Under the pieces are notes generated by a model that saw only the letters and a list, made by a program, of their open reading frames with translations, had not been told where the DNA came from and made no database searches. From positions 8,659-72,658 of the forward strand of contig JBIPLF010000003.1 of the NCBI GenBank assembly GCA_044368015.1: 64,000 nt of DNA, given 5' to 3'. Positions 25,051 to 62,757 of the stretch are shown here, one piece after another. A program made the position numbers and the translations under genes. Each line of letters begins with the position of its first letter. The stretch's first letter is position 1. Source of the DNA: Rickettsiales bacterium (lineage in GTDB: Bacteria; Pseudomonadota; Alphaproteobacteria; Rickettsiales; RI-342).

Positions 25051-25102
25051 GCGGTCAGACGGTTTTTCTTGCCTTTGCTGTGTGTGCCCGTATCGAATGG
25101 TC

Positions 25103-25754: not shown

Positions 25755-26759
25755 ATGGACACACAGGCGCTTTCCTTCTTAAAGGATTCTTTAGCGGGTA
25801 CAAAGTACTCGCTAGATAAATATATCGTACAGGCTAATGCTGACTTCACCGTCGCGGGAAAGCATATATCTGGCCACGTCCACTACGTTCCTATTGATAA
25901 AAATACTGGTAAACCCGACACAGCTAATTTCACTCAATACATTATGGGAAAGTTGATTGCTTTCTGTGTGCCTCCTTCTCAGCAGAAGCTAATAAAAGAT
26001 GCCGCTGAAAGTGAAAATGATGCTTCGATGGAGCTAGTACAAGCTGCATCCGAAACCTTAAAAGCGATTAGTGAACGGAAAGATGGTAAAAAGAGTTCTT
26101 CAGGAGAAATTGGAGAATTGATACTTTTTGTGCTTTTAGAGGGTATTCTGTGTGCACCTGCTGTTGCCTCCAAACCTTATCTAAAGATGAACGGGCAGGA
26201 TCAGGTGAAAGGCTGTGACGGCGTACACATTTTGTACGACGGAAACGATGTAGTGATTTACTACGGCGAATCAAAACTATCCCCCGATGTAGATTACTGC
26301 GTTAGCGATTCGGCGAAGTCAATTAAGGCCTACCACGCCAATGGCAACAATAAAAAAAGGCGCGATTTAAGCGTTATTGCTCAGAACATAGATTTGAATA
26401 TTAGTGGCGATTATAAGGAAGCTATAGAAAACGAGCTTCTCTATTACTTAAACCCAGTTAGACGCAAAAAGAAAGAGCGATCTTACAAGGAAATTAACGC
26501 ATGCTTTCTTGGGTTTGACCACGATCTTTACAAGAAATTGGAAACTGTAGATAAGGCCGAAAGAAACCAGTTGCTCCTACAAGAGGTAACCAAAGAATTT
26601 CCCACTATACTCAGCAAAATTGACAAAAGCATAGACAGCACCATTTCTGATTACAATTTTCATTATTTTGTAATGCCCTTTGATAGCGTTAGCGAGATGC
26701 AGACGCTATGTGAAGAGTATCTAAAACCCTTCTCTTTCCATAAAGGAGGGACAACATGA
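25755..26759 (+). CDS. PD-(D/E)xK-type nuclease candidate, DUF1837/HamA-like
   Basis: GEIGELILFVLLE ... CDGVHILYDG ... YYGESKL gives an E / D / ExK arrangement. Its stop overlaps the helicase start (ATGA at 26756-26759). Confidence 0.6.
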   Translation: MDTQALSFLKDSLAGTKYSLDKYIVQANADFTVAGKHISGHVHYVPIDKNTGKPDTANFTQYIMGKLIAFCVPPSQQKLIKDAAESENDASMELVQAASETLKAISERKDGKKSSSGEIGELILFVLLEGILCAPAVASKPYLKMNGQDQVKGCDGVHILYDGNDVVIYYGESKLSPDVDYCVSDSAKSIKAYHANGNNKKRRDLSVIAQNIDLNISGDYKEAIENELLYYLNPVRRKKKERSYKEINACFLGFDHDLYKKLETVDKAERNQLLLQEVTKEFPTILSKIDKSIDSTISDYNFHYFVMPFDSVSEMQTLCEEYLKPFSFHKGGTT

Positions 26760-29377: not shown

Positions 29378-29384
29378 AAAGAGA
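29339..29384 (+). repeat. Perfect 23-bp tandem duplication (AAGGCCGCTGTCTTAAAAAGAGA x2) at the 3' end of the helicase gene
   Basis: The two copies at 29339-29361 and 29362-29384 are identical. The second copy shifts the frame and creates the stop at 29375. Confidence 0.95.
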
Positions 29385-29519
29385 GTTGCATCCGTACTTT
29401 TATAGCGAGGTAGCTAAAATCTTTGATTTGCAGTAGCGAGCAAAGCTAACCGCGCACATTCCTTTACTTTAATCCCTGCACCCCATATTATTGCCGGTGG
29501 AGTAGCGTGTTGCTGCTCT

Positions 29520-29707
29520 GGGGCTAGTTACCCCTTATCGAAAGCGTTTTCGCTGAACACGATAGTTCGGCTCCCATGCCTATGGCTGGGAGTCTGCCGA
29601 ATACAATAGCGGCTTGCCGTGAATAAGGCAGGCACGATCTTTCGACGTGTAACTAGCTCCCAGTCACCAGTCTGTTTTCCGGCCATACCGGCAAAGCCGC
29701 TGGTGAC
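29520..29707 (+). ncRNA. Unclassified highly structured region (candidate ncRNA or 5' leader)
   Basis: A 12-bp closing helix (29520-29531 with 29649-29660) and a 7-bp helix (29538-29544 with 29639-29645) enclose hairpins at 29569-29594 and 29612-29633. An 8-bp-closed long hairpin follows at 29663-29707. G-U pairs occur only if the plus strand is transcribed. Confidence 0.45.
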
Positions 29708-29739
29708 TTACGTTTGAAAACCAAATGTAGGGAGCCTGT

Positions 29740-29976
29740 ATGGAGCAATATGATATTTGGGCGGATGCCCTGAACAAATTTTCCCAGCTTACGCCGTGGG
29801 TGCAGGTGGCTATCTGCCTTGGCCTATGCGCGGTGGTGCTGGGAGTGGCCTATTTCGTGAAGGAAATCGTGGCTGTGGTGATGTCGCCGTTTAAGAAGCC
29901 AGAGGAACCGAAAGAGCCGAAGAAAGAGTGGCGGGATAAATGGTATCGCGGAGATGAAGCGGAAAAGAACCTCTGA
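29740..29976 (+). CDS. Small single-pass membrane protein with a highly charged C-terminal tail
   Basis: GGGAG lies upstream of the ATG. TM segment WVQVAICLGLCAVVLGVAYFV is followed by KKPEEPKEPKKEWRDKWYRGDEAEK. Confidence 0.5.
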   Translation: MEQYDIWADALNKFSQLTPWVQVAICLGLCAVVLGVAYFVKEIVAVVMSPFKKPEEPKEPKKEWRDKWYRGDEAEKNL

Positions 29977-30075
29977 TAACGCCTTTTCCTTAAACAGTTT
30001 TCCCTCGTTTATATAGACAAATAGCTAGGTTGCTGGCATTGTGTGGAGCTATCGAAACCATGATAGCAAAGCACC

Positions 30076-31128
30076 GTGCAACATGCGGAGGCCTATGTTG
30101 AGGCCATAAGAAAAAGCGGATTTTCCATATACGATCCCATCGAGGTGGGCGCCCCCACGCTATGGATACCCAGCCCTGAACTCGAATATCTGCTGAATAA
30201 CCGCCTGAAAGGAATTTCCCTCGCCGGACTTCCGCTGCGTACGCGCTCGAAAATCGTGAAAGAGCATGTGTGCAAAGCGCTCGGCTACCCCGTTCCCGCC
30301 TCTTTTAAGAAGACCCAGCCACGCTTTTCTGGCCAGTTCTTCGATACCTATATCCAGAAATCGAACAATTTGCAGGTGTGGAACGAGGAGCTTTCGCCCA
30401 CGCGCCGCTACGTTATTATCCGCGTGTCGCCCGAAGATATGATCGTAAGGGTGCGGGTAATAACGGGGGATAGCCTTTCCTTGCTGGATACCACGGGAAC
30501 GCTGACCCAGAAATTTCAGGCTCGCTTGGTTCCTGGCGATAAGGATGCGGAGCTAATCGCCGAGCAAGATACCGCGCTGCTGACGCCGCACGTCCATGAA
30601 TCCGTAGGGTTAGCGCATAAAGCAAATCCCACCGACCATCCTGACGGGAGAACGCTGCTGTCGATAAAGTCCGTTTATAAAAAACTGCATTCCTTGGTGG
30701 GTGCGGGCTTCCCCGATGCGGGCATCGACCAAGAACGCAACCGTGGCGCGGCGCTCCATCGGCTGGTATGCGAAAAGCTGGGTTATAGCAGCTACCAAGA
30801 TGACGGCCAGTTCCCCGATGTGCGAAACCAGCTATTGGAAGTGAAGCTGCAAACCTCTCCGACTATCGACCTCGGCTTGGTATGCCCAGACTGCACGGAC
30901 GCGCTGGACGTTCCCCAAATAGGCGGGGCGCAGATACGGCATTGCGACGTGCGCTATGCGCTGTTTTATGCCGTGATCGAGAATGGCACGGTACGGATTA
31001 CCCACTTTTACCTGACCACAGGCGAGCGGTTCTTTACGCGCTTTCCCAAATTCGGAGGGAAGGTACTGAACAAGAAATTGCAGATTCCATTACCCTCGAA
31101 CTTCTTTGACGGGCAATCCGAAAGCTGA
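30076..31128 (+). CDS. Candidate type II restriction endonuclease, MutH/Sau3AI-like PD-(D/E)xK
   Basis: FPDVRNQLLEVKLQ has the same D-x6-E-x-K spacing as the MutH catalytic D70/E77/K79 (DFEALGVELK). It is convergent with, and overlaps, a methyltransferase gene. Start is GTG. Confidence 0.6.
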   Translation: MQHAEAYVEAIRKSGFSIYDPIEVGAPTLWIPSPELEYLLNNRLKGISLAGLPLRTRSKIVKEHVCKALGYPVPASFKKTQPRFSGQFFDTYIQKSNNLQVWNEELSPTRRYVIIRVSPEDMIVRVRVITGDSLSLLDTTGTLTQKFQARLVPGDKDAELIAEQDTALLTPHVHESVGLAHKANPTDHPDGRTLLSIKSVYKKLHSLVGAGFPDAGIDQERNRGAALHRLVCEKLGYSSYQDDGQFPDVRNQLLEVKLQTSPTIDLGLVCPDCTDALDVPQIGGAQIRHCDVRYALFYAVIENGTVRITHFYLTTGERFFTRFPKFGGKVLNKKLQIPLPSNFFDGQSES

Positions 31129-32838
31129 CCATACGAGTTGATCTATCTCTCTTTCGATACGGGTGCTTTCGTCGAGGCACGAGCATTCGTACGCTTGCTT
31201 GCTAAGCTGGATAATCCGTTTTGAGGTTTCCTGCATGGGGTAGGGCAGCGGAAACTCCTCGACATACTGGGTAATAAAGCGCCGCCTTCCGGCATAGAGC
31301 TTGTTATTAAAGCGATGGTCGTAAAACGCCTCGATAAAGGAGGAGTTAGCTACCCCCACCGCCAGCCACAGATCGTTGAGCGATTCGTTATCCTGCGCGG
31401 CCAACCAATAGCAGTCTCCGTTTACCACACCGCCGGACTGGTCGATCCAGAAAGTGGGGCGCTCGGAAATATCGCGGAACACCAGCTTTGGCAAATCCCA
31501 GCAAGAAGGGTCTTGCGGCACCCAGATTTCGTACCATGCACGGCCAGCCTCGATAACATATTTCCGGCTCTCCAGCGTTGCTCTGTGCTGTTCCAGATAA
31601 GCGGCGGATTTGGGATGCTGCGCCAGATTGACCGCTTGTTTTTTGCCGTTCGCGGATTCGTGCGGGTAAAGGATTTGCTTCTGCTTACCTGTGGTCTTTG
31701 CCTTAAAGCGTCCAGCGATATGGTGCGTAATAAGGTTACGTAATAATTCCGGCTGTTCCTCGTGCGGTAGCTCGCTCCAGTCCGAGCGGATAAACACCTT
31801 ATCCGCACAGGTTTTTACGCCGACACGGATTTTACCAATGTCCGAGAATCTCTTATGCGTATGCGCGGTAACGCACTCCATCCATTGGTCTGTGTGCGTA
31901 CAGGAAATCCGCCAGACGGAATCGGCACTACCGTTTATATCCAACGCCCCATGCTTTACCGCGAAACTTCTGCCATCCTTAACCGTTACGATCCCCGTGT
32001 TCTTAAGAGCCTCTAGCGGGTTAGCGGCAATCGTGTCTCCAGAATCCTTTGTCTGGTAAATCGAGGAAAATTGGGGGACAGGACTTTCCCGCTTTCCTTT
32101 GCCGCTAAGTAGGAGAACAGCCGGAAGCACGGCCACATCGAAAAGTTTGGTATCGCCCAAATCCCAGACATGCTCGACATTGATTTCGTCGCGCAGGACT
32201 TTCCGAATGGAAGCGCCGGATTTCGTCGTCATGAAACGATTAGATACGATAACCCCCGCCACCCCATCGGGAGCCAGCACACGCGAGATACCCAGCAGGA
32301 ACGGGTAATACAAATCCATCCGTCCCGAGAGATTGAATTGCTGCATAAGCTGGCGGGACTGTTCTCCACCAAGAATTTGCGTCCTAACGTAAGGTGGATT
32401 GGCAATAACCAGATCGAAGGAGTCCGTTTCCTGCGAATTATGGAATAGATCGTGGCTTCCGTAGTGGTTATCCAAAATATAATCGAGGAAACTGGAGCAG
32501 GTGAAATCCAGCGCCACATTCGGAAAACGAGCAGCTATGCGGGATTCCGCCACCGCTAAAGCAGATTCGTCCGTCTCGAACCCACAAACCGTTATCGCGC
32601 ACTCTGCCTCTCCCTCCAACTGTTCGAGAATGCTTAGGAGTAATTCGCCTTCGCCGATGGCAGGGTCGAGAATGCGTAGGTGCTTCTTACTGCCCGTGGC
32701 GTAGGAAGAAAGCATCTGGTGTGCCACAAAATCGGCCAGAACTTTAGGGGTATAGGCGACCCCCCCCGTCTTTGCTTCCGTGGCGGCTCCATAGCGTCTT
32801 AGCGTATTTTGTTCCGGTTCTTTAACATCTAATTCCAT
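31090..32838 (-). CDS. N6-adenine DNA methyltransferase (gamma class, Eco57I-type catalytic domain with TaqI_C-like specificity domain)
   Basis: Motif I LRILDPAIGEGELL, motif IV LVIANPPY, and a C-terminal GDCYWL...RRRFITQYVEEFPLP. Confidence 0.88.
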   Translation of the reverse strand: MELDVKEPEQNTLRRYGAATEAKTGGVAYTPKVLADFVAHQMLSSYATGSKKHLRILDPAIGEGELLLSILEQLEGEAECAITVCGFETDESALAVAESRIAARFPNVALDFTCSSFLDYILDNHYGSHDLFHNSQETDSFDLVIANPPYVRTQILGGEQSRQLMQQFNLSGRMDLYYPFLLGISRVLAPDGVAGVIVSNRFMTTKSGASIRKVLRDEINVEHVWDLGDTKLFDVAVLPAVLLLSGKGKRESPVPQFSSIYQTKDSGDTIAANPLEALKNTGIVTVKDGRSFAVKHGALDINGSADSVWRISCTHTDQWMECVTAHTHKRFSDIGKIRVGVKTCADKVFIRSDWSELPHEEQPELLRNLITHHIAGRFKAKTTGKQKQILYPHESANGKKQAVNLAQHPKSAAYLEQHRATLESRKYVIEAGRAWYEIWVPQDPSCWDLPKLVFRDISERPTFWIDQSGGVVNGDCYWLAAQDNESLNDLWLAVGVANSSFIEAFYDHRFNNKLYAGRRRFITQYVEEFPLPYPMQETSKRIIQLSKQAYECSCLDESTRIEREIDQLVWSAFGLPVKEVRG

Positions 32839-33137
32839 GCAGCCAACTATAACTACTTCCTTCGTAAAGAGCTACCATTGCACACAGAAATTTCCTGTGC
32901 CGTAATTTATACCCCCGATAACCCGCTAAAACCCTAGGGTTTTTACTAAAGCCGTCTGCCAGCGTCCCAGAACGCGGGGTTTAGGGCGGGTAGCCTTACC
33001 CCTTGTAGGTTATGCGATAGGACTCCACGACAAACTGCGGAGGCCGTTTTTTGGCATAAAGGCTAAAAACAGTGGTGGAGAGCGTAAAAACCTATTCGTT
33101 ACCCGTAAACCCCGCCTACAGCGCCTAAAGCGACTAA

Positions 33138-33299
33138 ACCTTATTGCAGGTATGAGGCATCCGATATGGCGACCCCAGACCTTATTGCGGATATTTTGGA
33201 AGCCGTTGCTATAGCAGGATATTTTTGGCCTCTGGTGGCGCTGAACCTTATTGCGGTGGTTGGTATTTTGGAAGATGGCGGCGAAAGACTTATTATAAC
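33138..33299 (+). repeat. Direct repeats of ACCTTATTGC(A/G)G (33138, 33179, 33245) plus ACTTATTATAAC, candidate integrase arm-type sites at the right end
   Basis: The same ACCTTATT core occurs three times at the left end (19761, 19772, 19813) and twice at 33467-33489. Confidence 0.6.
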
Positions 33300-33321
33300 T
33301 AATTGAAATTCCAGTGTTAAA

Positions 33322-33398
33322 TGGTGGGGGGTGAGGGACTTGAACCCCCGACAAAGGCGTTATGAGCGCCCTGCTCTAACCAACTGAGCTAACCCCCC
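33322..33398 (-). tRNA. tRNA with CAT anticodon (Met, or Ile2 if lysidine-modified)
   Basis: GGGGGGTTAGCTCAGTTGGTTAGAGCAGGGCGCTCATAACGCCTTTGTCGGGGGTTCAAGTCCCTCACCCCCCACCA has a perfect 7-bp acceptor stem and encoded CCA. Confidence 0.9.
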
Positions 33399-33565
33399 AC
33401 GGGCTTGAAAACTCTACTCATGACTCCGAATCGTTACTACCCATTTCTTCCTGCACACCTTATTATAACCTTATTGCGCTGTGCAACGCCTTCCAGTTTT
33501 TGCCTTCAAAATCACGTCGAAAGCCTTATGCAGTAAGGCCTCTGGCGATTTACCCTTGCGGGGAT

Positions 33566-33677: not shown

Positions 33678-35009
33678 TCAAATCTGGTAGGAATCGTATT
33701 CTTCCCGCGTGGCGGCGAGGGCCGCCAGCTCCGCAATCAGGGAGGCGATGCGCACCGGCGGCGGGCAGTCCTTCAGTACTTCCCCGCAGGGGGCATCCAC
33801 CGATGCGCCATCGCAGAGCGGCGTGAATTGCATCCCCGGACTGTTGAGGCTGGAAAAGGCGTCCTTCTCCGGATGCACGCGCCAGGCCCCGCCCACTGCA
33901 CAGCCGCCAATCAGGTAGAGCATCGGCTCAGCGGTGTAGGTACCCACACGATCCACCGACGGCACGCCCTCCTGAATCACCACTTCGCTGTTGCCCACGC
34001 CTTCCTTGATGACATGCATCCGGTCGCGGTGTTTTTTATTCATGGCGAGCACCTCCTCGCCGGAACGCGCCGTCATGATGCCCATGCCGTAAGTGCCGCT
34101 GCTGGCCTTGATAAACACCACCGGTTCGTCGGCAATGCCGTATTGCGTGTATTTCGCCTGAATGAGGCGCACCATGGCGTCCACTTCTGCCGCAACCTGA
34201 TCCACCCCCGTGCGTTCCTTGAAATTCACGCTGCCGCAATGGCGGGTGAGCGGCTGGATCAGCCAGGGATCAATGCCAAAGGCCGCGCCAAACTGCTCCG
34301 CCAGCTCGGCATAGGCAGCGAAATGCACCCATTTGCGGCGGCGATACCATCCCATCTCCACCGGCGGTACGATGGGTTGGGTGATGCGCGTCATCCAGTC
34401 CGGCACCCCGGAGGTGAGGTCGTTATTCACCACCAGCAGGTCGGGGATGAAGCCGGATTGCGTCTGCACGCGGTCGCCCATGAGGGTAATCGGTTCCACC
34501 TCCAGCGGAATCCCGGAAATACTATGGAGTTGCAGGGTTTCGCCCTCCCCCTCCTCCATCATCCCCAGCCGCACCTCCATGCCCGCATTGCGGAGTAGCC
34601 CGGAGAGCACGGCGATGTTTTCCAGATAATAGAGGTTGCGCGTATGACGCTCCGGCAGCAGCAGCACCCGCTTCGCCTGCGGATAATAGCGGGCGAGGTA
34701 ATCACGCATCTTGCGGGCGGCCCGCAGCCGGGCGGGAATCGACAGGTTATTGAAACCGGCGGGAAAGAGATTGGTATCCACCGGCGCGATTTTATACCCG
34801 GCATGGCGCACATCCACCGAGGCGTAAAAGGCGGGTTGGGTGCGCGCGCGCATCGCGGCGAACCAGTCGCAGACCTCCTCGCCCCGTGTTTCCAGCAGGG
34901 CGTCGAGCTGGGGGATGATGGAAGGAGTGGCCGGAGTTCGGAGTTCAGAGTTCAGTGATTCCTCTGCTCCATCCTGCACTCTGAACTCCGATCGCTGAAC
35001 GCTATACAT
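33678..35009 (-). CDS. gshA: Glutamate-cysteine ligase (GshA, T. ferrooxidans-type family)
   Basis: FYASVDVRHAGYKIAPVDTNLFPAGFNNL matches the PF08886-type GshA signature as I recall it. The start is uncertain because a family F repeat lies right after ATG 35009. Confidence 0.75.
   Translation of the reverse strand: MYSVQRSEFRVQDGAEESLNSELRTPATPSIIPQLDALLETRGEEVCDWFAAMRARTQPAFYASVDVRHAGYKIAPVDTNLFPAGFNNLSIPARLRAARKMRDYLARYYPQAKRVLLLPERHTRNLYYLENIAVLSGLLRNAGMEVRLGMMEEGEGETLQLHSISGIPLEVEPITLMGDRVQTQSGFIPDLLVVNNDLTSGVPDWMTRITQPIVPPVEMGWYRRRKWVHFAAYAELAEQFGAAFGIDPWLIQPLTRHCGSVNFKERTGVDQVAAEVDAMVRLIQAKYTQYGIADEPVVFIKASSGTYGMGIMTARSGEEVLAMNKKHRDRMHVIKEGVGNSEVVIQEGVPSVDRVGTYTAEPMLYLIGGCAVGGAWRVHPEKDAFSSLNSPGMQFTPLCDGASVDAPCGEVLKDCPPPVRIASLIAELAALAATREEYDSYQI
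34933..35000. repeat. Family F-variant palindrome at or inside the 5' end of gshA
   Basis: CGGAGTTCGGAGTTCAGAGTTCAG ... CTCTGAACTCCGATCGCTGAAC. If ATG 35009 is used, it translates as SEFRVQDGAEESLNSELRTP. Confidence 0.75.
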
Positions 35010-35414: not shown

Positions 35415-35580
35415 TCACCCTCCCCCGGAATTGCACTCAATTCCGACCCCTCCCATTCAGGGAGGGGTGATGGATGCGAGGTCAAACCCTGATCCCCCCA
35501 CTAAGGGGCAGGAAATTGGCGGTGAACCCCTCCTCCTCACTCCCCCCTCCCTGAATGGGAGGGGGATAGGGGGAGGGTGA
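35415..35580. repeat. Family A repeat (inverted part 1 at 35415-35470) plus a related GGGAGGG hairpin (35538-35580)
   Basis: TCACCCTCCCCCGGAATTGCACTCAATTCCGACCCCTCCCATTCAGGGAGGGGTGA and CCCCCCTCCCTGAATGGGAGGGGGATAGGGGGAGGGTGA. The second abuts the DUF559 stop. Confidence 0.85.
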
Positions 35581-36026: not shown

Positions 36027-36434
36027 CTACGCCGCTGCGCCTTCGTCGGCCTTCGCCCCCTGCTTCGCCTTGTAATCCTCGATCGCGGCTTTGATCGCGT
36101 CTTCGGCCAGCACTGAGCAATGGATCTTCACCGGTGGCAGGGCCAGATGGGTGGCGATATCCACATTCTTGATGGTGCTCGCTTCCTCGATCGTTTTGCC
36201 TTTGATCCATTCGGTGGTGAGCGAGCTGGAAGCAATCGCCGAGCCACACCCAAAGGTTTTGAATTTGGCATCGACAATCTTGCCGGTGATATCCACCTTG
36301 ATCTGCAGCTTCATCACGTCACCGCAGGCCGGTGCGCCCACCAGCCCGGTGCCGACATCGGCCGCGTTTTTATCCAGTGACCCGATATTGCGCGGGTTTT
36401 CGTAATGGTCGATTAGTTGGCTACTATAGGCCAT
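36027..36434 (-). CDS. iscU: Fe-S cluster scaffold IscU (NifU N-terminal type)
   Basis: LIDHYENPRNIGSL...GAPACGDVMKLQIKV...FKTFGCGSAIASSS. Confidence 0.93.
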   Translation of the reverse strand: MAYSSQLIDHYENPRNIGSLDKNAADVGTGLVGAPACGDVMKLQIKVDITGKIVDAKFKTFGCGSAIASSSLTTEWIKGKTIEEASTIKNVDIATHLALPPVKIHCSVLAEDAIKAAIEDYKAKQGAKADEGAAA

Positions 36435-36834
36435 GGTTTGTGCTCCTCACAGGGTTCAGGATTCGGGATTCAGGGTTCAGTTTGCGTTCCAGACTGTTGC
36501 GCAAACCATTCAACATTCTGCCTATTTCACTACATTGGAGCATCACATCCGACATCGGTGGTTCATGCGTGTACTGCAATCGCACTGCGATCAATAACTG
36601 CGTTTCCAACTCCGATAGCGAGCCATAGGCAAGATTGAGAAATCGAATATAATCTCTGGTAGAGCGTCTAGCGTTACCTTCTGCGATATTGGAAGGCACC
36701 GATATCGCAGCGCGCCGAATCTGGCTGGTTAAACCATATTGTTCTTCACGAGGAAAATCGCGGGTCAGGCCATAGACGGTCGTCACCATATCCATGGATT
36801 TCTGCCATACGAGGAGATTCTGGTAATGCTCCAT
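36424..36834 (-). CDS. Four-helix-bundle protein (23S rRNA intervening-sequence protein family)
   Basis: YQNLLVWQKSMDMV...QIRRAAISVPSNIAEGNAR matches the TIGR02436-type signature. Its C-terminal tail is encoded by a family F repeat arm. Confidence 0.85.
   Translation of the reverse strand: MEHYQNLLVWQKSMDMVTTVYGLTRDFPREEQYGLTSQIRRAAISVPSNIAEGNARRSTRDYIRFLNLAYGSLSELETQLLIAVRLQYTHEPPMSDVMLQCSEIGRMLNGLRNSLERKLNPESRILNPVRSTNHGL
36451..36481. repeat. Family F repeat arm (left) flanking the four-helix-bundle gene
   Basis: AGGGTTCAGGATTCGGGATTCAGGGTTCAG is the inverted complement of 36853-36876. Confidence 0.85.
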
Positions 36835-38120: not shown

Positions 38121-39359
38121 TTATGCTGCGCTACGCTGCGTTTGTGTTCGTTGATACAGTGCTTCCCAGCAGGCTGCGAAACGCTCGAAATCTGCTGTTG
38201 TGCTTGCCCATCCGGCACTGACCCGCACCACCTCGGAGGCTTCTGCATGGCTGAACCCCATCGCCTGAAGCGCGGGCGAGGCCTCCATGCGCCCCGACGT
38301 GCAAGCGGAACCAGCACTCACCGCCAGGCCTGCCAGATCGAACTGCATCAGTTGCGTTTCAAAGGATACACCCGGCATGCGGATGCAGGAAGTGGTGGCC
38401 ACCCGTGGGCTGTCCTTGCCGATCACTTCTGCCCCCTGCGCGGTGAGCCGTGCTTCCATGGCGTCGCGGGCTGCGGCCAGGGAGACAATCTGCGGCAGTG
38501 TGCGGGAGAGCAGCCCGCAGGCGGCAGCAAATCCGGCGATCGCCATCACATTTTCCGTTCCGGCACGCTGATTACGCTCCTGACCGCCGCCCCGCATCAG
38601 AGGCAACAGCGGCAGGCAACCATTGACGATCAGCGCCGCCGCCCCCACCGGCCCACCCATTTTATGGGCGCAGAGGGTGACGAGATCTGCCCCCAGTTCG
38701 GGTATTGAAAGCGGCAGTTTGCCAAAGCCCTGCGCCGCGTCGCAATGGAGCATCCCGCCATGGCGATGGACGAGATCGGCAATCTCCGCAATCGGCTGGA
38801 TCACGCCGGTTTCGTTCTGCACCCACATCACCGACACCAGCGTACCGGGACCGGATTGTTGTAGCATGGTTTCGAGTGCCGTCCTGTTGACCTCGCCGCT
38901 GCGATCCACCGGAATGCGCTGCGCGCCTGTCACCGCTCGCCATACCGATGGATGCTCCACGGCAGAAACCAGCGTGGTGTTGGCATCCAGCCCGCGCAGC
39001 GCCCAGTTGTTGGCTTCCGTACCCGACGCCGTGAAAAACACCGATGCCGCAGTGGTGCCTGTGGCCTTTGCCACCGCCTCCCGCGCTTGCTCTATCGCCA
39101 CCCGCGCCACCCGCCCGAACCGATGCACGGACGAGGCATTGGCGGGGACCTCCAGCCAGGGGAGCATGGCATCCCGCGCTTCCGGCAGTAGCGGGGTCGT
39201 GGCGTTGTAATCGAGGTAGGTGGCCCCCCTCTCCCTGTGGGAGAGGGCCGGGGTGAGGGTATCATTAGAGTAGGAATTTTTCCTCACCTTGGAGGCAGTA
39301 CCTCCAACCTCTCCCACAGGGAGAGGGTTTGCGCCACTCTGATGCAGCGTTTCCGTCAT
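38121..39359 (-). CDS. Second class V cysteine desulfurase (NifS-like)
   Basis: [19 protein letters not shown] and SAGSACTS. Its start overlaps the iscR stop (ATGA). The N-terminal ~35 aa include a family B repeat. Confidence 0.88.
39226..39327. repeat. Family B palindromic repeat inside the N-terminal coding region of the NifS-like gene
   Basis: CCCCTCTCCCTGTGGGAGAGGGCCGGGGTGAGGG ... CCTCTCCCACAGGGAGAGGG. The coding strand reads [10 protein letters not shown]...[12 protein letters not shown]. Confidence 0.85.
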
Positions 39360-40645: not shown

Positions 40646-41344
40646 ATGGCAGAAATTATTTTCCCCGGCCCTTCCGGGCGTATTGAGGGACGTTACCACC
40701 ATAGTGGCCGCGAAGGCGCGCCGATTGCGCTGGTGCTGCATCCGCACCCGCTCTATGGCGGCACGATGAATAACAAGATCGTCTACCAGACCTTCCACGC
40801 CTTTGCGCAGCAGGGGTTTTCGGTGCTACGCATCAATTTCCGTGGCGTGGGGCGCTCGCAGGGCACCTATGATGACGGTATGGGCGAGCTGATCGACGCC
40901 GCCGCTGCGCTCGACTGGTTGCAAATCCAGAATGGCGATGCCTCCACCTGCTGGATTGGCGGCTTCTCCTTCGGTGCCTGGATCGCCATGCAACTGATGA
41001 TGCGCCGTCCGGAGATTGAAGGCTTTATTGCCGTGTCTCCCCCGGCGAATATGTATGATTTTTCGTTCCTTGCCCCCTGCCCGGCTTCCGGACTGATTCT
41101 ACAGGGCGATAAGGACGAAATCGTGATGGAAGAAGCGGTGTCGCGGCTCGCAGCCAAGCTTGCCACCCAACGCAATGTTGCCATTAAATACGAGATGGTG
41201 CCGGGCGCCGACCATTATTTCCGTGGGCATCTGGATACGCTCTCCGCCCATGTGAGCGATTATCTGGATCGGCGGCTTAATCAGGCCGAACCGGCAGCCG
41301 CGTTGCGGAACGATAGAAAGCGCCGCCAGTTACCGCGCGGCTAG
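40646..41344 (+). CDS. Alpha/beta hydrolase (COG2945-like)
   Basis: LVLHPHPLYGGTMNNKIV and GGFSFGAW (nucleophile elbow). Confidence 0.8.
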   Translation: MAEIIFPGPSGRIEGRYHHSGREGAPIALVLHPHPLYGGTMNNKIVYQTFHAFAQQGFSVLRINFRGVGRSQGTYDDGMGELIDAAAALDWLQIQNGDASTCWIGGFSFGAWIAMQLMMRRPEIEGFIAVSPPANMYDFSFLAPCPASGLILQGDKDEIVMEEAVSRLAAKLATQRNVAIKYEMVPGADHYFRGHLDTLSAHVSDYLDRRLNQAEPAAALRNDRKRRQLPRG

Positions 41345-42485
41345 CCCCGGTGGTTTCCGGCAGGCTCAGCGGCAACCCCAGCAGCGACCGCACGGCAAGG
41401 TAGGCGAATGCCTGCGCTTCGAGCATGTCGCCATCTAGCCCCAGCGCTTCCACCGGAAGCACAGAGTTGCCAGTTGCCAGTTGCCAGTTGCTAGTATGCT
41501 GACTGACGACTGACAACTGACAACCGACAACTCCCTGCATGATTCCCGGATGCAGCCTGCCTCCGCCGGTGATGATCCAATGCTGCGGTGGTTCGGGGAG
41601 GAATCCCCCCGCATGCAGCATGCTCTGCGCGGTAAAGGCCGCAAGGGTTGCCGCACCGTCTTCCAACGAAAGCCCCGCATCCAGCAGCGGTTGCAGCGAG
41701 AAATCATAACGGTCGAGGGACTTGGGCGGTGGACGCTCAAAAAACGGATGCGCCATGAGCTGCGCGAGCACTGCCGCATCCACCTGCCCGGCTTGCGCGT
41801 AACGGCCGTCCCTATCGTAGGTTTCGCCGGTGTGACGCTGCACCCATTCATCCAGCAACACATTGCCGGGACCGGTATCGAAGGCGGCGATCCGCTTGCG
41901 GTCGGCGCTGAAGCCGGTGACATTCGCCACCCCGCCGATATTCACCACTGCCACCGCACCGCTTAAGCCTCCAATAATCGCCCGGTGGTACAGCGGCACC
42001 AGCGGCGCGCCCTGCCCTCCCGCCGCCATGTCGCGCCTGCGGAAATCGCATACTACGTCGATGCCGGTACGTTCGGCGAGCAACGCGCCATCGCCGATCT
42101 GCCAGGTGAGATGCGCCTCCGGACGGTGGATCAGGGTTTGGCCGTGAAACCCCACCACATCCACCTCCTGCGGGGTGAGGTTCGCCTTCGCCAGCAATTG
42201 CGTCACCGCTTCGGCATGCAGCAGGGTGAGGTCGCGTTCGAGGGAGAGGAAGTCGTCAGTTGCCAGTTGCCAGTTGCTAGCGTGGGTATCACTGACAACT
42301 GGCAACTGACCACTCGCTACTAGCGCCTTCATGGCGCTGGCAATCCGCGCCCGCATCGCGGCATCATAGGGCAGGTGGAAGGACTCGCCCGGAACCACCA
42401 GCCCCTCGCCGTCAGTTTCCAGCAGCGCGGCATCCACCCCATCCATGGAGGTGCCGCTCATCAGGCCGAGTGCGCGCATCCGCAC
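41277..42485 (-). CDS. anmK: Anhydro-N-acetylmuramic acid kinase, carrying two in-frame repeat insertions
   Basis: GLMSGTSMDGVDAAL, GFHGQT, DFRRRDMAAGGQGAPLVP, NIGGVAN and AFDTGPGN. Confidence 0.92.
   Translation of the reverse strand: MRMRALGLMSGTSMDGVDAALLETDGEGLVVPGESFHLPYDAAMRARIASAMKALVASGQLPVVSDTHASNWQLATDDFLSLERDLTLLHAEAVTQLLAKANLTPQEVDVVGFHGQTLIHRPEAHLTWQIGDGALLAERTGIDVVCDFRRRDMAAGGQGAPLVPLYHRAIIGGLSGAVAVVNIGGVANVTGFSADRKRIAAFDTGPGNVLLDEWVQRHTGETYDRDGRYAQAGQVDAAVLAQLMAHPFFERPPPKSLDRYDFSLQPLLDAGLSLEDGAATLAAFTAQSMLHAGGFLPEPPQHWIITGGGRLHPGIMQGVVGCQLSVVSQHTSNWQLATGNSVLPVEALGLDGDMLEAQAFAYLAVRSLLGLPLSLPETTGASRAVTGGAFYRSATRLPVRPD
41463..41531. repeat. Family E palindrome (CAGTTGCCAGTTGC type), in frame in anmK
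   Basis: GAGTTGCCAGTTGCCAGTTGCCAGTTGCTAG...CTGACGACTGACAACTGACAACCGACAAC encodes QLSVVSQHTSNWQLATGNS. Confidence 0.9.
42257..42323. repeat. Family E palindrome, second in-frame copy in anmK
   Basis: CAGTTGCCAGTTGCCAGTTGCTAG...CTGACAACTGGCAACTGACC encodes VVSDTHASNWQLATDD. Confidence 0.9.
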
Positions 42486-50525: not shown

Positions 50526-50711
50526 TTAGGCGTTTATTTTGGCCTGAGTGACCTGCTTACCCTTGTAATGTCCGTCCTCTGCGGCAATATGGTGCGGACG
50601 ATGCGGCGCACCGGTTTCGGCATCGTAGGATACGGCGACCGGTTTCAGCGCATGGTGCGAACGGCGCATATTGCGACGGGATTTGGACGTTTTTCTTTTA
50701 GGAACAGCCAT
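50526..50711 (-). CDS. rpmF: 50S ribosomal protein L32
   Basis: N-terminus [19 protein letters not shown]. Confidence 0.95.
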
Positions 50712-50744: not shown

Positions 50745-51713
50745 ATGAGCGCGGCACCATACGGAAAAGACACGGTTTCGTCAATGCCTCCGTGGGTTAC
50801 GGTGTTGATTATTACCTATAACGCCGGAGACTGGATTCTGCACTGTCTGGAGGGACTGGCGGCGCAGAGCGATTTCCACTTCACCGCGATGCTGGTGGAT
50901 AACGCCTCTACCGACGGTTCGCTGGAGGCGATTCCTGCCTATCCGTGGCTGAAAATCGTGCGTAACCGCGAGAATATGGGGTTTGCGGCGGCCAATAATC
51001 AGGCGGCGAAGCTGGCGGAAACACCGTGGATCGCCCTCCTCAACCCCGATGCCATTCCTGCCCCCGACTGGCTGGCGCAGTTACATGCCGCCACAGACGC
51101 GCATCCGGAATACGCCGTGTTTGGTTCTACGCAACGCCAATTACACGACCCGCACCTCGCCGACGGCTTCGGCGATCAGGTCTGTTACGGCATCCCTTTT
51201 CGTAGCTATTACGGTGCGCGGATGGATGCCCTGCCCACCGCCGACCGCGAGGTGTTTTCTCCCTGTGGGGCCAGCGCCCTGTACAGGCGTGATGTTTTTT
51301 TGCAGCTTGGCGGCTTCGATGCGCGCTTCTTCTGTTATTGCGAGGATGTGGAGCTGGGCTTCAGGCTTCAGGCGGCGGGCTATCGTTGTTTGCAACTGCG
51401 GCACGCGCTGGTGAATCATGCCGGTTCGGCGCTCACCGGCAAGCGCAGTGATTTTTCCACCTATCACGGGTTTCGCAACCGGTTCTGGATGGCGGCCAAG
51501 CACCTGCCCTTCCGGGTACTGGTCATGCATCTGCTGCTGACCAAGCTGCTTTTCTATCAGGCACTCTTCCGCGGACAGGGCCGCTCCGCCTGGCGTGGCT
51601 GGCGGGATGGCATGCGGGGCGCCTGCTCCTTCTGGAAAGAACGCAGCACCACCAGAGCGCCACGCCATACACAATGCTGGAATCTGCGCGTACTGTTGAC
51701 GAGGCGGGCATGA
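50745..51713 (+). CDS. Glycosyltransferase family 2
   Basis: VTVLIITYNAGDWILHCLEGLAAQ, VDNASTDGS and the CEDVELGFRL motif. The 49785-50744 part of the ORF is rejected as antisense read-through. Confidence 0.85.
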   Translation: MSAAPYGKDTVSSMPPWVTVLIITYNAGDWILHCLEGLAAQSDFHFTAMLVDNASTDGSLEAIPAYPWLKIVRNRENMGFAAANNQAAKLAETPWIALLNPDAIPAPDWLAQLHAATDAHPEYAVFGSTQRQLHDPHLADGFGDQVCYGIPFRSYYGARMDALPTADREVFSPCGASALYRRDVFLQLGGFDARFFCYCEDVELGFRLQAAGYRCLQLRHALVNHAGSALTGKRSDFSTYHGFRNRFWMAAKHLPFRVLVMHLLLTKLLFYQALFRGQGRSAWRGWRDGMRGACSFWKERSTTRAPRHTQCWNLRVLLTRRA

Positions 51714-52468
51714 TCGCCATTAAACGGCACCCGCGGGCCAAACGCCTTTCCTTACGCATCACGCGGGAGGGGGTGGCGCAGGTGGTGGCACCTCCACGGG
51801 CGACGGAAAAGCAGATTCACGGATTTGTGGAGCGGCATCGCGGCTGGATGGAGGCGCGTCTGGCCGCCCGTCCCCAACCGGTGCGGATTGGCGAAGGAGC
51901 GACGCTCACCGTGTGCGGTGCGCCCCTCACCCTGCGGCATACGGGGAAGTTGCGGGGAGTGGCGTGGGTGGAATCAGGGGTCAGGATTCAGGATCCAGGA
52001 TTCAGAGAAACAGCTCTTTCTGAATCCTGGATCCCGAACCCTGAATCCACCATCCTGTGGCTCTCCGGCCCGCCCGAACATCTGGGCCGCAAAGCGGTGC
52101 GCTGGCTGCAACAGACCGCCCATGACACGGCGCTTCCCATACTGGATGCCGCCTGTGCGACACTCGGCACGGCGCATGCAGGATTGCGGGTGCGGGATCT
52201 CTCCAGCCGGTGGGGAAGCTGCACCGCGCAAGGGGTGATCACCCTCAATTGGCGGCTGGTCTTCGCCCCGCCGGAGGTGATGCGCTATGTGATCCTCCAC
52301 GAAGCCGCGCATCTGAAACATATGGACCATAGCCCGCGCTTCTGGTCGGTGGTGGCGAGCCTGATGCCGGAATACAAGCAGGCCCGCCACTGGCTAAAAA
52401 CCCACGGCGCGGAGTTGCATGCCTATGGGGTTGATGACGCGATCACAAAAGCTAAGGAGCCGGAATGA
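51710..52468 (+). CDS. M48-family metallopeptidase (YgjP/DUF45-like), with an in-frame family F repeat
   Basis: VILHEAAHLKHMDHSPRFW (HExxH). Its start overlaps the upstream stop (ATGA). Confidence 0.85.
   Translation: MIAIKRHPRAKRLSLRITREGVAQVVAPPRATEKQIHGFVERHRGWMEARLAARPQPVRIGEGATLTVCGAPLTLRHTGKLRGVAWVESGVRIQDPGFRETALSESWIPNPESTILWLSGPPEHLGRKAVRWLQQTAHDTALPILDAACATLGTAHAGLRVRDLSSRWGSCTAQGVITLNWRLVFAPPEVMRYVILHEAAHLKHMDHSPRFWSVVASLMPEYKQARHWLKTHGAELHAYGVDDAITKAKEPE
51973..52048. repeat. Family F palindrome, in frame in the M48 peptidase gene
   Basis: GGGGTCAGGATTCAGGATCCAGGATTCAGAGAAACAGCTCTTTCTGAATCCTGGATCCCGAACCCTGAATCC encodes GVRIQDPGFRETALSESWIPNPES. Confidence 0.9.
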
Positions 52469-53807: not shown

Positions 53808-55523
53808 TTACGCCCCCATCCCCACGGCCTTTAGCAATTCCCGCGTATAGGCGTGGGCGGGGTGGCTGAAGAGCGATTCGCTGGCACCGTATTCCACTAC
53901 CTCGCCGCCTTTCAGCACTGCCGTGCGATGCGCCAGACAGCGTACGACCGGCAGATTGTGGCTGATGAGCAGATAGGTCAGTTGATAGCGCTGTTGCAGG
54001 TCGCGTAGCAGATGCAGCACCTGCGCCTGCGTCAGCACATCGAGCGCGGAGGTTGGTTCGTCGAGGATGATAAGTTCCGGCCGGAGTACCAGCGCCCGCG
54101 CAATGCTGATACGCTGCCGTTGCCCGCCGCTGAAAGCGTGCGGATAGCGATGTTTGGCGGAAACCTCCATCCCCACATCGGTAAGCGCCCGGTCGATCAG
54201 CCATTCCATGCCCTTGCCTTCCGGATCAAGTGCGGGCAAGGCGCTGCGATGCGTCCGCAACCCTTCCAGCAGAATATCCCGCACCATCATGCGCGGGTTG
54301 AGGCTGCTATAGGGGTCCTGAAACACCATTTGCAGGCGACGGCGCAAGGGCCGCATCTGCGCGGTGCTGTAGCCCTCTATCGCCTCCTCCCCGAAACGAA
54401 TCGTGCCGGTGCTTTTTACCAACCGTAACAAGGCGAGTGCCAACGTGGTTTTGCCGGAACCACTCTCCCCCACCAGCCCCAGCGTTTCGCCTTTGTACAG
54501 GGTAAGGCTCACATCCCGCACCACCGGTGTCATCTCCGGCTTGCCGTTCAGCACCCGCTTTTTGGGAAAGGCAACGCTTAACCGCTCCATCGTCAGCAGG
54601 GGTACAGCATCCGGCAGGGGCGCAGGTGCATGATCGCTGGGAGTGGCGGCAATCAGCGCCTTGGTGTAGTCGTGCTGAGGGGCTGCAAACAGGGTGTTCG
54701 TCGCCCCCTCCTCTACCTTTTCTCCGTGGCGCATCACCAACACCCGGTCGGCCATGTCGCGCACGATATGCAGGTCATGAGTGATGAGCAGCATCGCCAT
54801 GCCCATACTCCGTTGCAAATCGCGCAGCAGTTGCAGCACCTGCGCCTGCACGGTGACATCCAGCGCGGTGGTCGGTTCATCGGCAATCAGCAGCGCCGGG
54901 CTGTTGGCGATCGCCATGGCGATCATCACCCGCTGCCGCTGCCCGCCGCTCAGTTCATGCGGGTACGCATGCAGGCGTGTGGTGAGGCTGCCCAGCCCTA
55001 CTTGTTCCAGCAGTTCCACCACACGCGCTTTCGCCTGCGGCTTGGTGAGGGGTTGATGCAACAGGATATTCTCGGCGATCTGCCGCCCGATGGGGTGCAG
55101 CGGGTTCAGCGCCGTCATCGGCTCCTGAAAGATCATCCCGATGCGGTTGCCGCGGATGCTACGCAGTTGCGGTAGCGGGCAGGAGGCGAGGTCGATCTTC
55201 TCCCTCTCCCTTTGGGAGAGGGCCGGGGTGAGGGATGTTTTGTCGAGGTCTGGATTTCCCCTCACCCTGCCCTCTCCCACAGGGAGAGGGTTCTCCCGAT
55301 ACCACACCTGACTCTCCTTCGAGAGGACCAGAGGTGCGGAAATCAGCCGCAGCAGGGACAGCGCAGTGAGCGACTTCCCCGAACCGCTTTCGCCCACCAG
55401 CGCCAGCGTTTCCCCAGCGGCGAGCGTGAAGCTCAGCGGCTTGACGAGCGTACGCTCCCCCTTCCCTTCCGGCACCGAGATCGAGAGGTTGCGTACATCC
55501 AATAAGGGCAATGGGTCAGACAT
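53808..55523 (-). CDS. Double-ABC-domain ATP-binding protein (YejF/oligopeptide-type), with an in-frame family B repeat
   Basis: Two Walker A motifs (GESGSGKS, GESGSGKT) and two LSGGQRQR signatures. Confidence 0.9.
   Translation of the reverse strand: MSDPLPLLDVRNLSISVPEGKGERTLVKPLSFTLAAGETLALVGESGSGKSLTALSLLRLISAPLVLSKESQVWYRENPLPVGEGRVRGNPDLDKTSLTPALSQREREKIDLASCPLPQLRSIRGNRIGMIFQEPMTALNPLHPIGRQIAENILLHQPLTKPQAKARVVELLEQVGLGSLTTRLHAYPHELSGGQRQRVMIAMAIANSPALLIADEPTTALDVTVQAQVLQLLRDLQRSMGMAMLLITHDLHIVRDMADRVLVMRHGEKVEEGATNTLFAAPQHDYTKALIAATPSDHAPAPLPDAVPLLTMERLSVAFPKKRVLNGKPEMTPVVRDVSLTLYKGETLGLVGESGSGKTTLALALLRLVKSTGTIRFGEEAIEGYSTAQMRPLRRRLQMVFQDPYSSLNPRMMVRDILLEGLRTHRSALPALDPEGKGMEWLIDRALTDVGMEVSAKHRYPHAFSGGQRQRISIARALVLRPELIILDEPTSALDVLTQAQVLHLLRDLQQRYQLTYLLISHNLPVVRCLAHRTAVLKGGEVVEYGASESLFSHPAHAYTRELLKAVGMGA
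55202..55290. repeat. Family B palindromic repeat, in frame in the ABC ATPase gene
   Basis: CCCTCTCCCTTTGGGAGAGGGCCGGGGTGAGGG...CCCTCACCCTGCCCTCTCCCACAGGGAGAGGG encodes [31 protein letters not shown]. Confidence 0.9.
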
Positions 55524-56297: not shown

Positions 56298-56300
56298 AAA

Positions 56301-56366
56301 GTTGCCAGTATTAAGTTGCCAGTTGTCAGATACGATACCCACTGGCAACTCGCAACTGACAACTGA
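56301..56366. repeat. Family E palindrome, intergenic copy
   Basis: GTTGCCAGTATTAAGTTGCCAGTTGTCAG...CACTGGCAACTCGCAACTGACAACTG. Confidence 0.85.
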
Positions 56367-61408: not shown

Positions 61409-61513
61409 ATGCACCTTATTCTAGGAGTTGGCGCGATATGCCTCCTCCTCACCGGATGCGGGGTGAAGGGCGAGTTGCGCCATCCGGAACCGCCGGTGAC
61501 GGTACAACCGTAA
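61409..61513 (+). CDS. Small lipoprotein, LptM (YifL)-like
   Basis: MHLILGVGAICLLLTGCGVKGELRHPE has a lipobox plus the GCGxKGxL motif. It lies immediately upstream of lysA, as YifL-type genes often do. Confidence 0.6.
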   Translation: MHLILGVGAICLLLTGCGVKGELRHPEPPVTVQP

Positions 61514-62757
61514 TGGACCACTTCGCCTACCAACACGGCATCCTCCACGCAGAGGACACCCCCATTCCCGATCTGGTGGCGCGCTACGGCACGCCGCTTT
61601 ATGTCTATTCCAAAGCCACCGTCACCCGGCATTATCAGGTGTTTACGGAGAGCTTCGCCGACCGCGCCCATAAGGTCTGTTATGCGGTGAAAGCCAATGC
61701 CCATGCGGGGGTGTTGCAAACGCTCGCGGCACTCGGTAGCGGGGCGGATGTCGTCTCTGCCGGAGAGATTGCGCTGGCCGTGGAGGCCGGGATTCCACCG
61801 GGTAAAATCGTCTTTTCCGGTGTGGGGAAGATGCGGCGCGAGATGGCCTATGCGCTGGGGCTGGGCGTGTTTCAGTATAATGTGGAATCGCTTCCGGAGC
61901 TGGAATTGCTCAACCAGGTGGCGTGTGAAATGGGGGTCAAAGCCCCCATTGCTCTGCGGCTCAACCCGGATGTGGATCCGCAAACCCACGCCAAAATCTC
62001 CACCGGCAAGAAGGATACCAAGTTCGGTATCAGCATGGAGGAAGCCTGGGGCATGTACCACCATGCACGCAGCCTGCCGGGGATCGCCGTGCAGGGGGTG
62101 TCGGTGCATATCGGCTCGCAACTGACCTCGCTGCCGCCCTTCGAGCAGGCCTTTGCGAAAGTGTGCGACTTCACCCGCGCCTTGCTGGCGGAAGGATTCC
62201 CCATCTCGGTGCTGGATTTAGGCGGTGGGCTGGGTGTGCCGTACCATCAGGAAGAACCGCCCTCGCCCGCGCTCTACGCGGAGAGCGTCAAAAAAGTGGT
62301 GGGGGATTTACCCTGCGAACTGGTGTTTGAGCCGGGGCGGATGATCGTCGCCAATGCGGGAGTGCTGGTGACGGAAGTGATTTATGTCAAAAGAAGTGGT
62401 CAGTTATCAGTTGCTAGTCCTCAGTCTGCTGGCAACTGGCAACTGGCAACTGGCCACTCCTCCCGCACCTTCCTCATCGTGGATGCCGGGATGAACGACC
62501 TGCTGCGTCCGGCGCTTTATGGCGCCTATCACACCATCATCCCGGTGCGGGAAGCCGAAGCGGATGCGCCGTTCTCCCCCGTGGATATTGTCGGGCCGGT
62601 ATGCGAAACCAGCGATATTTTCGCGGAACAACGCCCCATGCCGCCGGTGGTTGCGGGTGACCTGCTCGCCATCCGCACTGCCGGAGCCTATGGCGCGGTG
62701 CTCGCCAGCACCTACAACGCACGGCCACGGGTGCAAGAGGTGATGGTAGGCAGCTAG
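61513..62757 (+). CDS. lysA: Diaminopimelate decarboxylase, with an in-frame family E repeat
   Basis: GTPLYVYS, YAVKAN (PLP lysine), LDLGGGLGV, EPGR and GPVCE. Its start overlaps the upstream stop (TAATG). Confidence 0.93.
   Translation: MDHFAYQHGILHAEDTPIPDLVARYGTPLYVYSKATVTRHYQVFTESFADRAHKVCYAVKANAHAGVLQTLAALGSGADVVSAGEIALAVEAGIPPGKIVFSGVGKMRREMAYALGLGVFQYNVESLPELELLNQVACEMGVKAPIALRLNPDVDPQTHAKISTGKKDTKFGISMEEAWGMYHHARSLPGIAVQGVSVHIGSQLTSLPPFEQAFAKVCDFTRALLAEGFPISVLDLGGGLGVPYHQEEPPSPALYAESVKKVVGDLPCELVFEPGRMIVANAGVLVTEVIYVKRSGQLSVASPQSAGNWQLATGHSSRTFLIVDAGMNDLLRPALYGAYHTIIPVREAEADAPFSPVDIVGPVCETSDIFAEQRPMPPVVAGDLLAIRTAGAYGAVLASTYNARPRVQEVMVGS
62401..62457. repeat. Family E palindrome, in frame in lysA
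   Basis: CAGTTATCAGTTGCTAG...GCTGGCAACTGGCAACTGGCAACTGGCCAC encodes QLSVASPQSAGNWQLATGH. Confidence 0.9.

Follow-up and report, generated by a model that had tools for sequence, protein, structure and literature searches.

Rickettsia palindromic elements (RPE) are described, in the part of a 2024 review on miniature inverted-repeat transposable elements (MITE) which summarizes Ogata et al. 2000 (PMC10969869), as repeats of 100–150 bp with a family-specific consensus, found in Rickettsia only. The review treats frequent in-frame insertion as a speciality of this genus. The present work concerns a 64,000-nucleotide stretch of DNA (the window) from a Rickettsiales bacterium (assembly GCA_044368015.1, contig JBIPLF010000003.1, positions 8,659 to 72,658, forward strand), in which a smaller hairpin repeat, here called family E and built from tandem copies of a 7-nt unit, lies in frame in two conserved enzymes, AnmK and LysA. 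We consider it probable that family E is a selfish or neutral, non-autonomous, RPE-like hairpin repeat of the heptamer-repeat class.

Comparison with known repeats

Like RPE, family E is palindromic and is found in frame in unrelated housekeeping genes, where it appears to add a surface peptide while the fold is kept; it also has intergenic copies and no known transposase. Unlike RPE, it is only 60–75 nt long, its arms are tandem heptamers which slip by 7 nt, its peptide does not depend on the reading frame, and elements of this type occur in several phyla of free-living bacteria. A preliminary description of the window had called the hairpins RPE-like. This is borne out as far as in-frame palindromes at the predicted protein surface are concerned, but size, architecture and range, set against RPE as they are described, make the heptamer hairpins an analogue of RPE rather than members of that group.

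Repetitive extragenic palindromic sequences and their hairpin-forming doublets (REP/REPIN; Bertels and Rainey 2011, PMC3116915) are also close in size and build: they are non-autonomous hairpins of 60–110 nt in which two short repeats face each other in inverted orientation, and they are scattered in many copies without duplicating their target sites. REPINs, on the contrary, lie outside genes, have a single REP sequence as each arm and are linked to a gene for a REP-associated tyrosine transposase (RAYT), whereas three of the four family E copies of the window lie in coding sequences and others are in frame in the genes of a glutamate synthase, a PurL and a kinase. No Y1 transposase or RAYT was found among the open reading frames (ORFs) that were scanned or called with Pfam, which are part of those of this 64-kb window. 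Family E also differs from MITE: there is no duplication at the one pair of empty and filled sites available, no direct repeat flanks the window copies, and no parent insertion sequence (IS) was seen.

Two kinds of heptanucleotide repeats come closest in sequence and organization. MacGregor 2015 (PMC4679880) described direct repeats of TAACTGA in Beggiatoaceae, Cyanobacteria and Bacteroidetes, for the most part between genes and shortly before start codons, with a single indirect repeat among those reported; the places in which copies can survive were noted to be dictated by stop codons. Their unit is nearly the same as that of family E (YAACTGR; TCAGTTA on the reverse strand, compared to CAGTTGC), they are scattered over taxa, they include copies right before start codons, and their reverse strand encodes LSVISYQ where family E encodes QLSVVS. 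TAACTGA repeats are direct arrays with stops in all forward frames; in family E, by contrast, the arrays are paired as hairpins, the G-type unit is free of stops on both strands and copies stand in the middle of enzymes. The GGGAATC and GGGGAYT heptameric repeats of Xanthomonas and Nostoc (Rehm et al. 2015, PMC4692102) also form arrays, with a preference for about four units, and in 70–75 cases per genome two arrays converge and could fold into a stem-loop. Their sites are spacers between ORFs of the same orientation, near start and stop codons, and show no association with IS. Unlike family E, they have a G-rich unit which forms G-quadruplexes, and in-frame insertion into enzymes was not described for them.

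Mazel in 1990, for the short tandemly repeated repetitive sequences (STRR), and Elhai in 2008, for the small dispersed repeats of Nostoc, reportedly described dispersed tandem heptanucleotide arrays, including units with a CAGT core, and very small elements embedded in such arrays are said to have been proposed to be mobile. These repeats differ from family E in being cyanobacterial, richer in AT and mostly direct arrays, and we know of no in-frame hairpins in conserved enzymes among them.

Family E thus has features of a heptanucleotide repeat, with a head-to-tail 7-nt unit whose copy number changes by whole units (7 or 14 nt), yet it behaves as a dispersed composite unit. Indeed, the copies share loops and termini, and a whole 75-nt hairpin is either present or absent at one site, unlike a simple repeat that arises in place. 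The preliminary description knew of no earlier account of this particular element. Related heptamer units are in fact published (PMC4679880, PMC4692102), but neither a CAGTTGC hairpin nor an in-frame heptamer hairpin in a conserved enzyme was found described in the literature covered, which is incomplete.

Four family E hairpins in the window

The window contains four copies of family E, all of them where the preliminary description had placed them to within a few bases: two within anmK, one within lysA and one in an operon spacer. The copies and their host genes are as follows.

41277..42485, minus strand: anmK (anhydro-N-acetylmuramic acid kinase), intact, host of copies 1 and 2
41463..41531, minus strand: family E copy 1, in anmK; sense strand (CAGTTGT-like)4, loop, (GCAACTG)4; encodes ..CQLSVVSQHTSNWQLATGNS..; folds with -54.0 kcal/mol (sense) and -35.9 kcal/mol (antisense)
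42251..42323, minus strand: family E copy 2, in anmK; encodes ..LVASGQLPVVSDTHASNWQLATDD..; folds with -44.2 kcal/mol (sense) and -40.4 kcal/mol (antisense)
56300..56366, minus strand: family E copy 3, intergenic; contains stop codons; folds with -35.3 and -29.2 kcal/mol
61438..62757, plus strand: lysA (diaminopimelate decarboxylase), intact, host of copy 4
62398..62459, plus strand: family E copy 4, in lysA; encodes GQLSVASPQSAGNWQLATGH; folds with -40.5 and -39.3 kcal/mol

The four copies, of 60–70 nt, have the same build: (CAGTTGC)3-4, a variable loop of about 10–20 nt, and (R-CAACTG)3-4, where the units of the right arm are GCAACTG or its transition variant ACAACTG. Every arm has a period of 7 nt and 3–4.4 copies of the unit according to Tandem Repeats Finder. 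The 14-mer CAGTTGCCAGTTGC occurs 15 times in the window with at most 2 mismatches, compared to 0.51 expected, and none of 100 shuffled sequences contained as many. The predicted hairpins are very stable (-29 to -54 kcal/mol, with z-scores of -4.9 to -10.5) and have no match in Rfam. Copy 3 fills a 72-nt spacer: it follows the stop codon (56370) of a gene for an AI-2E transporter and ends 3 nt before the ATG (56297) of a short-chain dehydrogenase/reductase (SDR) gene.

The copies resemble each other beyond the heptamer itself. Degenerate terminal units are common to all four; copy 2 and copy 4, which lie in different genes, have matching termini (AGTsGyCAGTTGCC ... AACTGACCACT); and the loops of copy 2 and of the intergenic copy 3 have in common the 9-mer GTGGGTATC, a match seen between any pair of copies in 0.5% of shuffles. 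Because they share these terminal units and the loop 9-mer (P ~0.005), the window copies are related by copying and are not independent inventions.

In-frame copies in AnmK and LysA

Both host enzymes are firmly identified and intact. AnmK matches NF007141 (3e-138) over residues 3–393, against positions 4–367 of the 370 of the profile, matches the AnmK structures of the Protein Data Bank (PDB; 3QBW, 3CQY) with about 1e-63, and keeps all 62 invariant columns of the alignment. LysA matches TIGR01048 (1.3e-132) and the PDB entry 3VAB (1.7e-123), and keeps 31 of 31 invariant columns. The observation from which this work started, that the palindromes sit in frame in intact conserved enzymes, is correct, as are the coordinates, to within a few bases, and the peptides that were quoted with it.

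A comparison with orthologues shows that the segments encoded by the hairpins are extra. Copy 2 adds a net 21 residues (63 nt) to AnmK, with 30 residues where 106 of 119 homologues have 9. At the position of copy 1, AnmK has 36 residues and the homologues 20–21, a net gain of 15 or 16. In LysA, the net gain is 20 residues: an exhaustive HMMER search gave 150 cluster representatives, a stretch of 47 residues in this LysA is 27 residues long in 132 of them, and the PDB orthologues show the same gap where the insert of copy 4 stands. The extra segments were found neither in the PDB orthologues nor in the 119 AnmK homologues and 150 LysA representatives. At the same sites of AnmK and LysA, other homologues have unrelated insertions, and the sites of the inserts can thus be regarded as tolerant to insertions and deletions.

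The AlphaFold2 models agree with the proposal that the inserts are surface loops. The mean predicted local distance difference test (pLDDT) score is 91.9 for AnmK and 90.9 for LysA, and the only internal segments of low confidence in both models are the inserts, all of which are placed between secondary-structure elements. The segment of copy 1 (residues 328–340, pLDDT of about 48–59) is modelled as a loop between helix 313–327 and strand 341–344, that of copy 2 as a low-confidence loop (about residues 59–72) between helices 42–58 and 72–100, and the insert of LysA (residues 321–340, pLDDT of 50–54) as a loop between strands 308–319 and 344–348. The location of the genic copies in surface loops that tolerate insertions and deletions is thus supported by the models and by the alignments.

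Translation of the heptamer arrays

Three heptamers make 21 nt, that is, seven codons. An array therefore passes through all three frames and encodes one cyclic peptide of seven residues: direct computation gives ATGNWQL for (GCAACTG)n and QLPVASC for (CAGTTGC)n, whatever the frame. The preliminary description had given weight to the fact that the inserts of genes on opposite strands have the same peptide signature. The signature is correct as seen, but since it follows automatically from three times 7 nt being seven codons, together with the avoidance of stops, it is no independent evidence.

All six frames of the GCAACTG/CAGTTGC unit are free of stops, whereas each forward frame of ACAACTG, ATAACTG and GTAACTG contains them, TGA in the case of ACAACTG. 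This dictates how the genic copies are oriented in their genes, because the arm of the A-type (TGA) must be antisense. When A-type units do occur in genic copies, it is only out of frame; those on the sense strand, in copy 2 of anmK and in the kinase of a Gemmataceae genome, have their TGA out of frame. The counts of TGG and TGA show no significant difference between in-frame units (6/0) and out-of-frame units (11/2; P = 1).

Gain, loss and slippage

Changes at family E sites could be followed at a polymorphic locus which is available in three contig lineages (L174, identical to L212; L205; L234) with about 91–94% nucleotide identity, and which contains two hairpins. Towards the C-terminal end of an ORF for a protein which resembles Y-family polymerases (ImuB-like), L205 and L234 have an in-frame copy of 75 nt, whose 25 codons encode SSCQLPVPSCQSNEREPTTGNRQLA; L174 and L212 have a clean empty site, GCCGAA|ACTGGAC. 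No target sequence is duplicated, a heptamer is completed at the right junction (GCA|ACTGG), and the copy adjoins a short match to its own unit (ACTGG). Copies are thus gained or lost as discrete units, without target-site duplication.

The length of the second hairpin, which separates the stop codon of the ImuB-like ORF from the following start codon, varies among the three lineages (0, +7 and +14 nt). Similarly, in two further pairs of alleles, with 97–98% identity, the only insertions or deletions are of 14 nt and 7 nt and both are within hairpin arms. The length of the arms therefore changes in steps of 7 nt, through replication slippage.

The polymorphic locus resembles an imuB-dnaE2 mutagenesis cassette, and the gene which follows the ImuB-like ORF begins with MYVELHSRSAFSFLEGA. 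The second hairpin fills the spacer between stop and start codons exactly.

Heptamer hairpins in other genomes and metagenomes

Representative genomes were scanned for three CAGTTRY units; the matches listed comprise 137 arrays and include neither the source genome nor close relatives of it. The listed arrays are mostly direct arrays of CAGTTAT or CAGTTGT in cyanobacteria, Planctomycetota, Acidobacteriota and Bacteroidota; 4 of the 137 have an inverted arm of two heptamers nearby, including those of a Gemmataceae and of a Gemmatales genome. Looser hairpins with longer loops are found in a Spongiisociaceae and a Poribacteria genome. BLAST against plasmids gave only direct arrays of a single arm, for example in plasmids of Pantoea ananatis.

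Metagenomes were scanned with a pattern of the hairpin. At least 120 matches were obtained, on contigs of 36–70% G+C, and the hairpins listed are mostly longer than those of the window (median about 40 base pairs). In-frame copies with Pfam domains on both sides are found in the large subunit of a glutamate synthase (GltB) and in PurL. The insert of GltB is absent from the 39 closest homologues examined, which are up to 76% identical; the nearest named relatives of its contig are Chloroflexota. A Ser/Thr kinase of Gemmataceae also has an in-frame copy, between HRDLKPANILM and KITDFGLA. Twenty metagenome ORFs which span a hairpin were searched with Pfam: 12 are without domains and are probably spurious ORFs of GC-rich DNA, 5 have the hairpin upstream of their sole domain, and 2 have domains on both sides. 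A census made with a synthetic arm peptide gave almost only tiny ORFs without domains, which cover direct arrays, and not host enzymes. Hairpins made of other units (AGATAGC, GAATGTT, AGTCGTT, GTCCTTT, CTGAGTG and AGTGGCT) occur on the same metagenome contigs.

In one case from a cultured organism, the unit adjoins or overlaps a start codon. On the Pseudomonas frederiksbergensis plasmid NZ_CP017887.1, a direct (CAGTTGC)6 array (1479–1530) makes up the annotated first 16 codons of wbpA; it encodes MLPVASCQLPVASCQL..., directly before the GxGxxG motif of the Rossmann fold.

Nature of the element and alternative explanations

As a probably selfish or neutral repeat, family E would be a short (about 60–75 nt), non-coding, dispersed hairpin, and would belong, as one lineage, to a widespread group of heptamer-array hairpins, which have various units and are found in many bacterial phyla. 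Its persistence inside essential genes can be explained by a unit which is transparent to translation, with six stop-free frames and three units to seven codons. Selection would retain the genic copies which add a net length divisible by 3, have no TGA or TAA in frame and lie in a surface loop that tolerates insertions and deletions; the encoded peptide would be a passenger, a disordered loop without a function of its own. Candidates for the mobilization are the transposition of a single-strand hairpin by an HUH/Y1-type enzyme, as in REP/REPIN, or else template switching primed by microhomology, or gene conversion from another copy.

Several observations weigh against this view. The best match of AnmK in databases is only 55% identical and the source organism has no close relatives there, so that fresh insertion into anmK or lysA is deduced, not seen. 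The presence or absence of a whole copy was recorded at one polymorphic site and in three lineages, to which gain and precise loss both fit. No mobilizing enzyme was identified among the scanned or Pfam-called ORFs, which cover part of the window; the only recombinase among them is a phage-type integrase, in an unrelated island. Three of the four window copies are genic, yet elsewhere most copies appear to be intergenic. Finally, the transcribed strand folds better than its complement in all four window copies, by 1.2 to 18 kcal/mol, which leaves room for a role at the RNA level.

Such a role is the core of one alternative, in which the hairpin is a functional nucleic acid: a target of RNase III or a determinant of stability, a translational pause or coupling signal near start codons, or the site of a heptamer-binding protein. 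The extreme stability of the stems fits it, as does the greater stability of the transcribed strand in the four window copies, which is due to G.U pairs. Intergenic copies tend to fill spacers between stop and start codons and to adjoin start codons, a placement also reported for the TAACTGA (PMC4679880) and GGGAATC (PMC4692102) repeats, and heptamer repeats influenced the expression of recF and recO in Nostoc (bioRxiv 10.1101/2022.06.06.494920). However, among eight further copies associated with genes (inside or just upstream of a gene identified by Pfam), the sense strand is the more stable in only three, so that there is no consistent bias, and the strand asymmetry of the genic copies is already forced by the avoidance of stops. 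Moreover, neither the loops nor the lengths of the arms are conserved, the host genes are functionally unrelated, and Rfam gives no match; we judge this explanation unlikely. Local genesis, in which a seed heptamer expands in place by slippage and the array is then copied into an inverted arm by fold-back (an intrastrand template switch), is also given a low probability. The 7-nt steps of slippage are real, direct arrays of CAGTTGC-type units are common, and the empty ImuB-like site already holds AACTGG, 6 of the 7 bases of the unit; that many heptamer units take the same architecture, on the same contigs, would suit a generic process of this kind. What speaks against it is that separate loci of the 64-kb window have the same unit, degenerate terminal units and loop 9-mer, that the polymorphic copy differs by 75 nt in one go, and that no seed sequence is seen in the proteins of orthologues. 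Any single step of 7 nt inside an essential gene would also shift the frame.

That the peptide itself (NWQLATG / QLSVVS) is selected, for instance as an interaction or localization tag common to AnmK and LysA, is very improbable. The same motif does occur in the three inserts and in proteins of other phyla, but any frame of the heptamer yields it automatically, disorder is predicted for the segments, their peptides vary freely, and the database proteins which contain the peptide are nearly all tiny, spurious ORFs without domains. It is still less credible that the hairpins are artefacts of sequencing or assembly, or that the host genes are inactive pseudogenes. The window does come from a metagenome assembly, and palindromes and short repeats may be assembled wrongly; on the other hand, the contig was recovered from two samples, independent assemblies with elements of this type number in the hundreds, finished genomes and plasmids have direct arrays of the unit, while the reading frames of both genes are intact from end to end, with all invariant residues present.

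A coiled-coil or heptad function of the peptide, a CRISPR, an attC site and a terminator were considered and rejected: there is no run of T, the loops are variable and copies lie inside genes.

If family E is indeed a selfish or neutral repeat, in-frame palindromic selfish DNA, which has been regarded as a peculiarity of Rickettsia, is reached here by a different and much smaller element, whose type occurs in free-living bacteria of several phyla. The element also links two literatures which have been unconnected, on heptanucleotide simple repeats and on dispersed palindromic elements, and would be one natural way in which conserved enzymes acquire loop insertions. Since each slippage of 7 nt shifts the reading frame, a copy in lysA or anmK could act as a mutational hazard or as a switch. 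In the annotation of genomes, such hairpins yield spurious "hypothetical proteins" of 30–90 residues, and in structure predictions they give unexplained loops of low confidence.

A wider proposal is put forward only tentatively, as a possibility that we hold to be the less likely outcome: heptamer-array hairpins may form a distinct class of tiny mobile elements across phyla, spread by a mechanism guided by structure or microhomology, in which the CAGTTGC lineage was filtered for a stop-free unit. Many families of units would then have a single build, with 3–8 tandem heptamers, a loop and an inverted array, and the stop-free CAGTTGC lineage would colonize the interior of essential genes, where it would add evolvable loops and frameshift switches that depend on 7-nt slippage.

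Other repeats and genes of the window

Two further hairpins of the window have the architecture of family E but other units.

51970..52057, plus strand: GGATTCA/TGAATCC hairpin, in frame within the YgjP-like metallopeptidase gene (51674..52468)
34932..35000, minus strand: GAGTTCA/TGAACTC hairpin, codons 4–26 of the called GshA ORF (33678..35009)

In the YgjP-like gene, the sole unit of the hairpin with a TGR codon in frame reads TGG, not TGA, and the Pfam YgjP-like domain (residues 23–244) runs across the insert. The GAGTTCA hairpin lies upstream of the GshA domain, which begins at residue 41. Direct heptamer arrays of the CAGGATT type are found at 36450–36480, at the 3' end of a bAvd/IVP-like gene, and at 61372–61399, just upstream of lysA.

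A separate family consists of nested palindromes on CCCTCTCCC...GGGAGAGGG, at 13672–13833, 35447–35576, 39227–39327 and 55202–55290. Their arms are of 20–36 nt and are 37–90 nt apart, and they are unrelated to the heptamer hairpins. The window also has tandem repeats which are not heptamers: a 23-nt unit present 2.2 times (96% match) at 29335–29384 and a 29-nt unit present 2.4 times at 50598–50668.

A low-GC island (46–50%) extends from about 19340 to 33400, between tRNA-Ile (19342–19418) and tRNA-Met (33322–33398). It contains the phage-type integrase (19832–21004), an N6-methyltransferase/Eco57I-like gene (31090–32838), and genes for HamA (25755–26759) and a DEAD/ResIII helicase (26756–29377), which make up a Hachiman-type defence pair. 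A weak third tRNA-like match at 19588–19666 may be the remnant of an attachment site.

The genes dnaA (2985–4466, minus strand) and dnaN (16087–17217, plus strand), which are usually adjacent, are about 11.6 kb apart and on opposite strands; ftsY, prfB and genes for an acyl-CoA dehydrogenase and for glycosyltransferases lie between them. The PCRF domain of the prfB ORF (6303–7142) is matched only from position 61 of the profile onward. This partial match would fit the programmed +1 frameshift which is usual for release factor 2, with the N-terminal part in another frame. In the region of the iscS-nifU operon for iron–sulfur cluster assembly lies a gene for a four-helix bundle of the bAvd/23S-rRNA-IVP type (36424–36834), next to a DUF559 endonuclease-like gene; both may be small insertions of selfish genes.

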